Of a stretch of DNA of 64,000 bases, positions 28,686-32,823 are shown in pieces. Position 1 is the stretch's first letter. Each line of letters opens with the position of its first letter. The notes beneath the pieces are model-generated. The model made no database searches and was not told the origin of the DNA. It saw only the letters and a list, made by a program, of their open reading frames with translations. The translations under genes and the position numbers were made by a program. The stretch comes from Escherichia phage 121/2022-2B: sequence record OR958571.1. One strand, given 5' to 3'.

Positions 28686-31600
28686 ATGGCTACTTTAAAA
28701 CAAATACAATTTAAAAGAAGCAAAACTGCAGGAGCACGTCCTGCCGCTTCAGTATTAGCCGAAGGTGAATTGGCTATAAACTTAAAAGACCGTGTACTTT
28801 TTACTAAAGATGACCAAGGAAATATTATTGATCTGGGTTTTGCTAAAGGCGGTAGTATTGACGGGAATGTTATTCATACAGGCAATTATAACCAAACTGG
28901 CGATTATACTTTAAATGGTGTCTTCACTCAGACTGGTAATTTTAATTTAACTGGTATTGCTCGAGTAACTCGCGATATTATTGCCGCTGGGCAGATTATG
29001 ACTGAAGGCGGAGAACTTATTACAAAAAGTTCAGGTACAGCGCATGTTCGTTTTTTCGATAACAATAGTCGCGAACGCGGAATCATTTATGCCCCGGCTA
29101 ATGATGGTTTAACTACACAAGTACTTAATATCAGGGTTCAAGACTACGCCGCTGGTAGCGAAAGCACTTATGCATTTTCAGGCAGTGGACTATTTACTTC
29201 ACCTGAAGTATCAGCATGGAAATCTATTTCGTCTCCACAAATTCTAACCAACAAAGTCATTACTAATAATAAATCTACGGGTGATTATGACATCTATTCG
29301 ATGGCAGACAATGTTCCATTGTCTGAAAGCACTACTGCTATTAATCATCTTCGTGTCATGCGTAATGCCGTTGGTTCTGGTATTTTCCATGAAGTTAAAG
29401 ATAATGATGGAATAACTTGGTATGCAGGTGATGGACTTGACACCTATCTTTGGTCATTTACTTGGAGCGGCGGAATTAAATCGAGTCACTCAATTTCTAT
29501 TGGTTTAACACCTGGTAATAAAGATTATTCAATATTAGGACCATCTAGTATTGCTTTAGGAGATAATGATACTGGATTTAAATGGCATCAAGATGGATAT
29601 TATTTTAGCGTTAATAATGGAACAAAAACGTTTTTATTTAGTCCTAGCGAAACAACTAGCCTAAGAAAATTTGTAGCTGGATATTCTACTAACGGAACCG
29701 ATTTAACTACTCCTCCAACTGAAAACTATGCATTAGCCACTGTTGTTACTTACCATGATAATAACGCATACGGCGACGGTCAAACTCTTTTAGGATATTA
29801 TCAAGGCGGTAACTATCATCATTATTTCCGCGGTAAAGGTACTACAAACATTAATACTCACGGCGGTTTGTTAGTTACTCCTGGTAATATTGACGTTATT
29901 GGTGGTTCTGTTAATATCGATGGTAGAAATAATAATTCAACTTTAATGTTTAAAGGCTATACCATGGGTCAAAGCTCCGTTGATAACATGTATATAGCTG
30001 TTTGGGGAAATACTTTTACTAATCCAAGTGAAGGCACCCGTAAAAATGTCATGGAAATTTCTGATGATATTGGATGGATGCATTATATTCAACGAACAAC
30101 TGCAGGTAAAGTCGAATCGGTTCTAAACGGCACCCAGATTGTTAATGAAAACTTGACCGTAGTAAAAAATGCTACATTTGATGGTACAATCAGCGCAGCA
30201 GGTGAAATTTCATCTGGGGCTGTGAATGCGCTTCGTATTTGGAACGCAGATTATGGAGCTATTTTTAGACGTTCAGAAGGCAGTCTTCATATTATTCCAA
30301 CTGCTTACGGTGAAGGTAAATATGGCGATATCGGTCCACTTCGCCCGTTTAGTATGGCTTTAGATACCGGTAAAGTTACTATTCCAGATTTACAATCAAG
30401 TTACAATACGTTTGCTGCTAACGGTTATATTAAATTTGTTGGTCATGGAGCGGGTGCCGGCGGTTATGACATTCAATATGCTCAAGCGGCTCCTATTTTC
30501 CAGGAAATTGATGATGATGCTGTAAGCAAATATTATCCTATTGTTAAACAGAAGTTTTTAAATGGTAAAGCTGTTTGGTCTTTAGGTACTGAAATTAGTT
30601 CAGGTACATTCGTTATTCATCATCTGAAAGAAGATGGTTCACAAGGCCATACGTCTCGTTTTAATCAAGACGGTACTGTTAACTTCCCAGATAACGTTTC
30701 TGTCGGCGGCGGTGAAGCTACTATTGCTCGCAATGGTAATATCTGGTCTGATATCTGGAAAACGTTTACTTCAGCAGGCGACGTAACTAATATTCGCGAT
30801 GCAATAGCTACTCGTGTTGCTAAAGAAGGTGATACGATGACCGGTAGGTTGACTTTATCTGCTGGAAATGATGCCCTTGTTTTAACTGCAGGCACGGGCG
30901 CTTCATCGCACATCCGTAGTGATGTAGGTGGTACAAGTAATTGGCTTATAGGCAAAGGCGGCGGCGACAATGGTCTAAGTTTTTACAGTTACATTACACA
31001 AGGCGGTGTGAACATAACAAATAACGGCGAAATAGCGCTTTCTCCTCAAGGACAAGGAGCGTTTAATTTTAATAGAGACCGCCTTCATATAAACGGTACA
31101 CAATGGACCGCACACCAGGCTGGCGATTGGGGAAATCAATGGCGCCAGGAAGCTCCTGTATTTGTGGATTTTGGTAATGTCGGTAATGATAGTTATTATC
31201 CTATTATTAAAGGAAAATCTGGTATTACTAATGAAGGGTATATATCTGGTGTAGATTTTGGTATGCGACGCATTCCTAATAACTGGGCACAAGGTATTAT
31301 TCGTGTAGGTAATCAGGAAAACGGTTCCGACCCACAAGCTATCTTCGAATTCCACTATAATGGAAACATGTACGTTCCTGACATGGTTAAAGCTGGAGTA
31401 AGAATATCAGCTGGTGGAGGTGACCCTGCATGGACAAGCGCATGTGTTGTTATTGGTGATAATGACACCGGATTAGTTCATGGTGGTGACGGCCGAATCA
31501 ATATGGTTGCCAATGGTATACATATTGCAAACTGGGGAGCAGGCTATCAATCTCATCCTGGGCTTTGGGATTCAACCGGTGCTTTTTGGACAGAAGTTGG

Positions 31601-32015
31601 AAGAGCTATCGTTTCTCATGGGCATCTCGTTCAGGCAAATGATAGTTATTCAACGTTTGTCCGTGATGTTTATGTCCGTTCTGATATTCGTGTTAAAAAA
31701 GACCTTGTTAAATTTGAAAATGCTTCTCAGAAGCTTTCTAAAATTAACGGTTACACTTATATGCAGAAGCGAGGCCTGGATGAGGAAGGTAATCAGAAAT
31801 GGGAACCTAACGCCGGTTTAATTGCTCAAGAAGTTCAAGCTATTTTACCAGAATTAGTTGAAGGTGACCCTGATGGTGAAGCTTTACTTCGTTTGAACTA
31901 TAACGGTGTAATTGGTTTAAATACAGCTGCAATCAATGAGCATACCGCAGAAATTGCAGAACTTAAATCAGAAATCGAAGAACTTAAAGCATTAGTTAAA
32001 TCATTGTTAAAATAA
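28686..32015 (+). CDS. 37: gp37 long tail fibre distal subunit with C-terminal intramolecular chaperone domain
   Basis: 1109 aa; N-terminus [33 protein letters not shown]; C-terminal ~111 aa (from Ser999, nt 31680) has the SDxRxK signature and coiled-coil tail seen in autocleaving chaperone domains. Confidence 0.9.
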
Positions 32016-32020
32016 TAAGA

Positions 32021-32034
32021 GGGGCTTCGGCCCC
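32021..32034 (+). other. CUUCGG hairpin between genes 37 and 38
   Basis: ggggcttcggcccc immediately before the gene 38 Shine-Dalgarno (GGAG); no strong U-tract, so probably an RNA-stability or coupling element. Confidence 0.4.
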
Positions 32035-32046
32035 TTGGAGGTTTAT

Positions 32047-32823
32047 ATGGCAGTAACAGGACCGTGGGTAGGATCGTCTGCAGTAGTTAATACAGGACAA
32101 AATTGGATGGGTGGCGCGGCCCAACGATTAAGAATGGGTGCTCCATTTTGGATGAGTAATATGATAGGTCGATCTGTTGAAATAATTCACACGCTTGGAG
32201 CAGACCATAACTTCAACGGTCAATGGTTCCGAGATAGATGTTTTGAGGCAGGTAGTGCACCTATAGTGTTTAATATCACTGGAGATTTAGTATCATATTC
32301 TAAAGATGTTCCTTTATTCTTCATGTATGGAGATACACCGAATGAATATGTTCAGTTGAATATACACGGTGTAACGATGTATGGACGTGGCGGTAATGGC
32401 GGTAGCAATAGTCCTGGTTCAGCTGGAGGTCATTGTATTCAAAACGATATTGGTGGGAGACTAAGAATTAATAATGGTGGAGCTATTGCTGGAGGTGGCG
32501 GCGGTGGCGGCGGCGGATATTATTCTCCTTTTTCACAAATGAGATTGACTTTTGGAGGTGGCGGCGGGCGTCCGTTTGGCGCACCGGGCGGATCTATTGA
32601 TATGCAATCAGGAGCAACTGCTGGTACTATTTCTGCGCCTGGAGCAGGGTCTGTGAACGGTATCTATAATGGCGGGAATGGTGGTGAAGTTGGCTCCGCA
32701 GGAGGTAGATGTAATATTCGTGGTCAAGGATATGAATACGATGGCGGAGCTGCTGGTTATGCCGTCATAGGGTCTACGCCGACATGGCAAAACGTTGGAG
32801 CAATATATGGTCCAAGAGTATAA
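32047..32823 (+). CDS. 38: gp38 receptor-recognising adhesin (T2-type)
   Basis: 258 aa from ATG 32047 ([13 protein letters not shown]); several poly-glycine tracts ([19 protein letters not shown]) between variable segments; the track start 32035 is TTG. Confidence 0.8.

Follow-up and report, generated by a model that had tools for sequence, protein, structure and literature searches.

The stretch of Escherichia phage 121/2022-2B analysed here (sequence record OR958571.1; 64,000 nucleotides, referred to as the window) carries genes 37 and 38 of a long-tail-fibre operon. We read this region as the distal long-tail-fibre host-range module of a Tequatrovirus in the T2/T6/S16 configuration, with the nucleoside channel Tsx as the predicted receptor, and estimate the probability of this reading at about 0.93. 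The sequence and its alignments directly show the gene structure, the domain membership, the mosaic boundaries, and that the catalytic and docking residues are conserved. The same scheme is found in the literature on T2, T6, and S16 (PMC3157838, PMC6851490, PMC7917993). The whole 64-kb window belongs to a T-even phage (Tequatrovirus), and its positions 1-22000 had 95-96% DNA identity to RB3, PST, ESh32, and others.

Gene product (gp) 37 had been described in the original prediction as a protein of 1109 amino acids (aa), and the open reading frame (ORF) 28686..32015 was consistent with this length. PHROG 1699 ("long tail fiber protein distal subunit") covered aa 1-1108 with E=0, and the exact sequence was present as UniRef100_A0AAU6NTD5, "Long tail fiber protein distal subunit", of Escherichia phage 121/2022-2B. 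Amino acid identity was 99.3% to gp37 of phage vB_EcoM_G10400 (hereafter G10400), 87% to that of FL23, and 86% to that of RB27. The 90% protein cluster of gp37 contained 42 members, and in 119 phage records, 80% or more of the gene 37-38 query was spanned by a single match; this type of gp37 is evidently common among phages. The first ~700 aa had only ~33% identity to T2 and T4, and the shaft was largely unrelated to those of T6 and PST. Within the shaft, Pfam Gp34_trimer matched aa 450-556 (E 6.9e-8), and phmmer matched aa 418-567 with the T4 gp34 structures 5NXF, 4UXE, and 9X3R (E ~5e-16). This gp34-like trimerisation domain was also present in gp37 of T2, T6, and T4.

The C-terminal tail of gp37, ~111 aa starting from Ser999 (nucleotide, nt, 31680) with the signature SDIRVKKD..., was found where it had been predicted. 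A hidden Markov model search matched it to Peptidase_S74 (PF13884, "chaperone of endosialidase") at aa 999-1058 with E 2.3e-12. Full-length gp37 scored 47.4 bits, and the tail by itself scored 53.6 bits (E 2.8e-14), the curated cut-off of the family being 22 bits, and profile positions 1-57 of 58 were matched. The domain was placed at the extreme C-terminus (aa 999-1109 of 1109), with the coiled-coil helix at its end. The homologue search with the tip and the chaperone domain yielded 19 proteins, which was enough for a conservation check, although shallow as an alignment; Ser999, Asp1000, and Lys1004 were invariant among all of them, down to 24% identity. The spacing of Ser999 and Lys1004 (Ser...Lys(+5)) equals that of Ser1264 and Lys1269 in T5 pb1, where a Ser-to-Ala change prevents autoproteolysis (PMC4690869). 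The cleavage sites were also aligned: DVYVR^SDIRVKK in the window, DLNVS^SDRRIKK in S16, DVYIR^SDSRLK in T6 and PST, and NVYIR^SDIRLK in T2. In S16, the last 113 residues of gp37 autocleave, baring the gp38 docking surface (PMC7917993), and in T2 and T6, C-terminal cleavage of gp37 is followed by gp38 capping (PMC3157838). Judging from its homology with S16, T5 pb1, and K1F endosialidase, gp37 of the window probably removes its own folding helper by self-cleavage.

Structural comparison pointed in the same direction. In the AlphaFold model of the monomer, aa 1000-1109 had a predicted local distance difference test score (pLDDT) above 90 and ended in a single long helix (aa 1072-1108), which corresponds to the heptad-like tail of the original prediction; hydrophobic residues at a/d positions with a 3-4 spacing could be read from the sequence of this helix. 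The best match of the monomer model in a Foldseek search against the PDB was the ICA domain of MyRF (7DC3, E 3e-6, prob 1.00); 3GW6, the "Intramolecular Chaperone" of the K1F endosialidase, was also among the top matches (E 0.02-0.08, prob 0.75-0.91). The entry 6F45_A ranked low because only ~68 of the 204 residues of the gp37 construct are resolved in 6F45. At the sequence level, aa 916-1109 of gp37 aligned to S16 gp37 of the 6F45 gp37-gp38 complex with E 3e-44. The proposed likeness of the gp37 tail to the self-cleaving chaperone domains of endosialidases and of the T5 fibre was thus upheld by the PF13884 match, the Ser/Lys(+5) pair, and the fold matches.

Gene 38 begins 32 nt past gene 37. 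Its predicted length of 258 aa was supported by the Shine-Dalgarno (SD) sequence GGAGG, by the Gp38_N profile, which aligned over positions 1-40 of 40 starting at the Met of ATG 32047, and by the gp38 homologues of RB27, G10400, and FL23, which are annotated as 258 aa. A TTG start at 32035, given by the mechanical ORF list (262 aa), was rejected: it overlaps the intercistronic hairpin, and the SD sequence, Gp38_N, and the annotated homologues all favour ATG 32047. Both Pfam families of this adhesin were matched over the full profile length, GP38 (PF05268) with E 1.4e-71 and 241 bits (positions 1-218 of 218) and Gp38_N (PF21721) with E 1.9e-21 and 76 bits. The protein was homologous to the receptor-binding domain of PP01 gp38 (PDB 9V85, E 8e-81; structure in PMC12892980) and to S16 gp38 (PDB 6F45_D, E 1e-52). 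The poly-Gly tracts expected for such an adhesin were located at aa 149-157 (nt 32491-32517) and aa 170-174 (nt 32554-32568), and glycine makes up 33% of the C-terminal 149 aa. In an alignment with gp38 of RB27, G10400, vB_Eco_ZCEC15 (hereafter ZCEC15), PST, T6, T2, and S16, the glycine motifs matched those of T2, T6, PST, and S16 column for column, and the intervening segments varied. Trp7, Trp20, and Trp35 were present and aligned with the S16 tryptophans; the three tryptophans of the attachment domain dock gp38 onto the gp37 tip (PMC6851490).

The exact gp38 sequence was found as UniRef100_A0AAU6NTN0, "Receptor-recognizing protein gp38", of Escherichia phage 121/2022-2B. Identity was 99.6% to gp38 of ZCEC15, 97.3% to RB27 (7 residues), 94.6% to FL23 (14 residues), and 86% to T6. 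The specificity domain closely resembles its T6 counterpart; 8 residues differ after aa 113. On these alignments, gp38 is a chimera of known subtypes, combining an S16-like attachment domain with a T6/PST/RB27-like specificity domain. The S16-like attachment domain probably corresponds to the subtype that Trojet 2011 termed "K3-like", as suggested by the comparison with S16 and by PMC3157838. Each gp37 C-terminal subtype goes with one gp38 N-terminal subtype (lock-and-key; PMC3157838). The gp37 tip and the gp38 N-domain of the window are both S16-like and therefore fit the published lock-and-key pairing.

Gene order and gene names are as in T4, and on this ground, and on nothing else, the locus could be assigned to the T4-type arrangement, in which the gp37 C-terminus is the receptor-binding tip and gp38 is an assembly chaperone not present in virions. 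However, gp38 of the window had no BLASTP match to T4 gp38 (183 aa) at E <1e-3, in accordance with the earlier claim that it is of the T2/T6 type and not the 183-aa T4 chaperone; it matched PF05268 and PF21721 and is homologous to crystallised adhesins. T4 gp38 itself had no Pfam match. T4 gp37 consists of Collar and Phage_fiber domains without Peptidase_S74, and gp37 of the window is the reverse. The comparison of orthologues suggested in the original prediction gave the same division: Peptidase_S74 in gp37 (aa 1243-1300 in T2, aa 882-940 in T6) together with PF05268/PF21721 in gp38 was shared by T2 and T6, and T4 had none of these.

The DNA comparison also stands against the T4-type arrangement. 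When the whole window was compared by blastn with the corresponding 77 kb of T4, homology ended after codon 56 of gene 37 (28852) and was back at 32829, 5 nt past the gene 38 stop, with a 98.6% match from there. The block 28853-32828 (3976 nt) was without a T4 match, and all other unmatched blocks were of 512 nt or less, so the region deserves its description as the clearest mosaic difference from T4. At the protein level, aa 1-67 of gp37 had 73% identity to gp37 of T6 and PST, and similarity ceased beyond; judging from its position, the N-terminal segment aa 1-56 would serve in joining gp36. The T4-type arrangement is effectively refuted by the sequence, and we assign it practically no probability.

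For the T2/T6/S16 configuration, the following course of fibre maturation is proposed. Gp37 would be made as a 1109-aa precursor, the last 111 residues of which would form a trimeric intramolecular chaperone composed of a mixed alpha/beta unit and a C-terminal coiled coil. This chaperone would template the folding of the interdigitated beta-helical tip. As for T-even fibres in general, the general chaperone gp57A probably also helps gp37 to trimerise. After the triple beta-helix has assembled correctly, Ser999, activated by Lys1004, would attack the Arg998-Ser999 bond; the 111-aa chaperone would leave, and the mature gp37 of 998 aa would have its tip, ending in ...DVYVR, exposed. A single gp38 monomer would then cap the three-fold gp37 tip, its N-terminal three-helix domain inserting Trp7, Trp20, and Trp35 into three equivalent gp37 pockets, and its polyglycine-II sandwich would offer the hypervariable loops to Tsx.

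Alternatively, the Peptidase_S74-like tail could be a non-cleaving relic kept on mature gp37, with gp38 attaching elsewhere or not at all. Cleavage in this phage is deduced from homology, and the poor model upstream of the scissile bond left the residues corresponding to the neighbouring-chain Arg/Asp "folding sensor" of T5 (PMC4690869) unmapped, both of which leave some room for a relic. Nevertheless, the SDxxxK motif is invariant at Ser, Asp, and Lys, and the tail has 0-3 differences per ~110 aa among the window, RB27, G10400, and ZCEC15 despite their diverged shafts. Moreover, autocleavage occurs in the homologue from S16 (PMC7917993), which matches the tail with E 4e-32, and only ~68 of the 204 residues of the S16 gp37 construct are resolved in 6F45. 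The chance of a non-cleaving tail is therefore very small.

The best match to the full module was that of G10400, with 98.9% nt identity. Along the module, the gene 37 shaft (window 28686-~31600) was ~100% identical to G10400, and the part containing the chaperone domain, the hairpin, and the gp38 N-domain (31650-32250) had 99-100% identity to ZCEC15, against 92-96% to G10400. By these identities, the module is a fine-scale recombinant with the junction inside it. The gp38 proteins of ZCEC15, RB27, and FL23 fell in the same 90% cluster as that of the window. T6-like adhesins, including that of RB27, use Tsx (PMC3157838), and the infectivity of FL23 and FL44 was lost on tsx deletion (PMC12032242). 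Since the set of hypervariable segments 1-4 in the gp38 loops is T6/RB27/FL23-like, we predict Tsx as the primary receptor on E. coli K-12, and gp38 most likely binds this nucleoside channel.

Several points weigh against the proposed module as a whole or in part. The cleavage of gp37, the incorporation of gp38, the 3:1 stoichiometry of gp37 and gp38, and the receptor are predicted by homology. In the AlphaFold monomer, the tip (aa 916-998) had a pLDDT below 50 and was unreliable; a poor tip model was expected because an interdigitated trimer was modelled as a monomer, and the shallow alignment of 19 homologues also made this part of the model unusable. Gp38 has private substitutions relative to RB27 (N208, N211, and Y229) in or near the hypervariable segments, and A192, A197, A200, and N204, likewise in or near these segments, differ from T6. 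As few as 3 residue changes relative to T6 give PST the recognition of OmpA and Yersinia (PMC3157838). Tsx may not be the sole receptor of the gp38 in question.

We therefore weighed the possibility that the architecture is as proposed but the receptor differs from Tsx or extends beyond it, for example, to OmpA, lipopolysaccharide, or a Yersinia protein as in PST. The 8 specificity-domain differences from T6, the three private residues relative to RB27, and the precedent of PST speak for it, as does AV119, which is in the same gp37 cluster yet is OmpA-dependent via another gp38. On the other hand, the tested members of the gp38 90% cluster (RB27 and FL23) use Tsx, and the PST-specific residues (R/I in hypervariable segment 2 and I in hypervariable segment 3) are missing from gp38 of the window. 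On balance, a different or additional receptor is unlikely. It is even more doubtful that the private loop substitutions themselves confer a receptor or host range other than Tsx-only; if they did, this natural recombinant of a G10400 shaft and a ZCEC15 tip would be a compact example of few-residue retargeting of a polyglycine-sandwich adhesin.

The CUUCGG hairpin proposed at 32021..32034, adjoining the gene 38 ribosome-binding site (RBS), was found as GGGGC-UUCG-GCCCC with GGAGG directly 3' of it. Its 49-nt context folds at -15.2 kcal/mol, a value that is not for the hairpin alone. A GC hairpin occurred at the 37/38 junction in every phage compared: it was identical in RB27, G10400, and ZCEC15, T2 and T4 had CUUCGG with other stems, and T6 and PST had other loops. 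The hairpin lies 5' of the SD sequence in the window (32019-32046), T2, T6, and PST, and in T4 (T4 segment 9624-9652) it sits between GGAG and AUG, resulting in a split RBS. As a feature distinguishing the module from T4, the hairpin was rejected, since T4 has one at the same junction and the window contains 13 CUUCGG hairpins. T4 keeps its CUUCGG hairpin at this junction though the flanking coding sequences are unrelated to those of the window. CTTCGG was over-represented in the window, with 29 copies vs. 13.5 ± 3.9 expected by chance; 13 of the 29 copies lay in stems of 4 bp or more that run in the direction of the local genes, with an SD sequence directly 3' in several cases. The 18-nt 37/38 hairpin GAGGGGCTTCGGCCCCTT has an exact second copy on the minus strand at 1691-1710. 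When 26500-34000 was scanned against Rfam with E up to 1, no match was obtained, and the hairpin is in no curated RNA family.

In G10400, the corresponding element is labelled "putative transcriptional terminator", and the GC-rich stem and the UUCG loop would suit a rho-independent terminator, which would end the gene 37 transcript and leave gene 38 to be transcribed separately. This is quite improbable for the hairpin at 32021-32034. There is no T-run on the plus strand (two T's only before GGAGG), and the terminator scan was silent on that strand; an intrinsic plus-strand terminator was rejected on these grounds. No late-promoter consensus TATAAATA was found between the hairpin and gene 38, the nearest upstream being at 27990, and the same layout of a hairpin followed by an SD sequence occurs at many internal gene junctions of the window. 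A minus-strand terminator call at 32035-32020 was set aside, as no minus-strand gene ends there. Hairpins of the C(UUCG)G type are reportedly stable and frequent in T4 intercistronic regions, as Tuerk et al. are said to have described in 1988. Most likely, the hairpin is a generic T-even intercistronic element with a putative role in mRNA stabilisation or insulation or in RBS presentation, not in termination. A weaker possibility is that the 15-nt hairpin core GAGGGGCTTCGGCCC, common to T4 between unrelated gene pairs, acts as a micro-homology junction for swaps of adhesin cassettes.

Coordinates of the module and of the related features in the window are listed in Table 1.

Table 1. Features of the distal tail-fibre module, the long-tail-fibre operon, and associated hairpins and promoter motifs (window coordinates).
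Feature	Position	Strand	Remarks
Gene 34	22965-26834		long-tail-fibre operon
Gene 35	26843-27958		long-tail-fibre operon
Gene 36	28021-28677		long-tail-fibre operon
Gene 37, long tail fibre distal subunit	28686..32015	+	1109-aa precursor; double stop TAA TAA
Conserved gene 37 5' end (aa 1-56)	28686..28852	+	last T4-homologous DNA, left edge of mosaic block
gp34-like trimerisation domain in gp37 shaft (aa 418-567)	29937..30386	+	Pfam and phmmer
Distal tip of mature gp37 (aa 916-998), predicted gp38 docking platform	31431..31679	+	ends ...RDVYVR
Predicted intramolecular chaperone/self-cleaving domain, Peptidase_S74 (aa 999-1109)	31680..32012	+	Pfam PF13884
Ser999 codon; Lys1004 codon	31680-31682; 31695-31697	+	
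Predicted coiled-coil helix of gp37 (aa 1072-1108)	31899-32009	+	AlphaFold and sequence
Intercistronic CUUCGG tetraloop hairpin	32019..32036 (core 32021-32034)	+	extended stem 7 pairs
Shine-Dalgarno GGAGG, gene 38	32037..32041	+	5 nt ahead of ATG, read from sequence
Gene 38, receptor-recognising adhesin	ATG 32047..32823	+	258 aa
gp38 attachment domain (aa 1-40)	32047-32166	+	
gp38 specificity domain (aa 45-258)	32179-32820	+	beta-helix and polyglycine sandwich
Holin gene t	32854..33510	+	Pfam Phage_holin_T, E 2.4e-117
CUUCGG hairpins, examples	1691-1710, 2570-2591, 38152-38167, 40803-40834, 41040-41057	-	
CUUCGG hairpins, further examples	46321-46338, 57186-57207, 63186-63205	-	
CUUCGG hairpin (9-bp) with T-run after gene 35, terminator-like; also one of the CUUCGG hairpin examples	27962-27983	+	terminator scan/folding
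Late-promoter consensus TATAAATA upstream of gene 36	27990-27997	+	7 nt past hairpin
Second TATAAATA	22923-22930		35 nt before gene 34

TATAAATA is taken for a late promoter on the basis of the T4 late-promoter consensus, which is well established. The copy upstream of gene 36 is a putative promoter and is likely the start of the 36-37-38(-t) late transcript; no further copy was found between 27997 and 57482. A strong 14-bp hairpin, a possible terminator of the late fibre/holin transcript, was observed at 33553-33585 (+), 43 nt past the holin stop and within the coding sequence of asiA, which is on the minus strand.

Other observations concerned the surroundings of the module. The middle of gene 36 (28200-28500) is a divergent patch with 59-67% identity to T2 and T4 and 99-100% identity to RB27 and G10400; T6 and PST had no blastn match there. 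By these values, it forms another mosaic patch, smaller than the main block and just upstream of it. The remaining blocks without a blastn match to T4 were of 195-512 nt (7114-7427, 16419-16822, 17433-17944, 39669-39909, 40545-40739, 46601-46975, 47876-48075, 48868-49311, 51062-51292, and 59661-59970) and are presumably small ORF replacements or indels. In gp35, the fibre hinge protein (26843-27958), aa 58-123 matched Pfam ILEI (PF15711, interleukin-like EMT inducer/FAM3 fold) with E 4.9e-8 and 33.8 bits, the cut-off being 27. ORFs overlapping or antisense within genes 36 and 37 (28113-28385 on the minus strand, 30665-30970 on the minus strand, 30975-31355 on the minus strand, and 31480-31821 on the plus strand) had no Pfam family and were regarded as spurious. 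Two records had odd host labels: PV654520.1, "Pseudomonas phage vB_PSGBLB0006", had 95% DNA identity to window positions 1-22000 and is a typical coliphage-like Tequatrovirus, and OK283618.1, "Listeria phage LPML1", gave a tblastn match to gp38 aa 1-140 with 34% identity.

The module is already known, the exact gp37 and gp38 being deposited with correct names. Accounts of the architecture, of the self-cleaving chaperone, of the polyglycine adhesin, and of the lock-and-key pairing go back to the 1980s, with structures in 2018 and 2026, and conceptually the module adds nothing beyond the known T2/T6/S16 scheme. The T2-type arrangement is given as the majority form among T-even phages (PMC3157838, PMC6851490). 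Since the module sets which bacteria the phage adsorbs to, its correct annotation serves host-range prediction and phage engineering. The key points of such an annotation are the predicted 998-aa mature gp37, the monomeric gp38 cap, and the probable Tsx receptor.

Among known systems, the modules of the Tequatrovirus phages RB27, FL23, G10400, and ZCEC15 have the same gene order, lengths, and domains as the window, and in RB27, G10400, and ZCEC15, the hairpin and the RBS are identical as well. T6 and PST share the Peptidase_S74 tail of gp37, the GP38 adhesin, and a near-identical gp38 specificity domain, the receptor of T6 being Tsx (PMC3157838). T6 is unlike the window in that it has another subtype of the gp38 attachment domain (MAVVGVPGWIGSS) and of the gp37 tip and chaperone (~34% identity over the chaperone), a largely unrelated gp37 shaft, and a UUU hairpin loop. 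The reported receptor of the Salmonella phage S16 is OmpC. S16 resembles the window in the gp37 tip and chaperone, with the autocleavage site aligned, and in gp38 (52% identity), where the attachment subtype, the three Trp residues, and the polyglycine sandwich are alike, whereas its hypervariable loops differ and its gp37 is shorter (6F45; Dunne et al., 2018).

T2 is the prototype, with Peptidase_S74 in gp37, a gp38 of the GP38 adhesin family, and a CUUCGG hairpin ahead of the SD sequence of gene 38; however, its gp38 is only 50% identical and uses the FadL receptor (PMC3157838), and its gp37 has 1341 aa with ~33% identity in the N-terminal 700 aa. T4 shares the first 56 codons of gene 37 and the CUUCGG hairpin at the 37/38 junction, and its flanking genes 34, 35, 36, and t are 80-95% identical (protein) or 92-98% identical (DNA). 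In contrast to the window, the adhesin of T4 is the gp37 tip itself, which has no chaperone domain, and T4 gp38 is an unrelated 183-aa chaperone. Outside the T-even phages, the K1F endosialidase (3GW6), T5 pb1, and the eukaryotic MyRF (7DC3) have in common with gp37 of the window the PF13884 domain, the Ser...Lys(+5) pair at the domain start, a trimeric coiled coil at the C-terminus, in the window a predicted one, and a comparable fold, the comparison for the window being made on a monomer model. Identity to them is only ~10-24%, and the cargo is different, in the window a T-even fibre tip. Unlike in these systems, release of the chaperone in the window would additionally bare the docking site for a separate adhesin.

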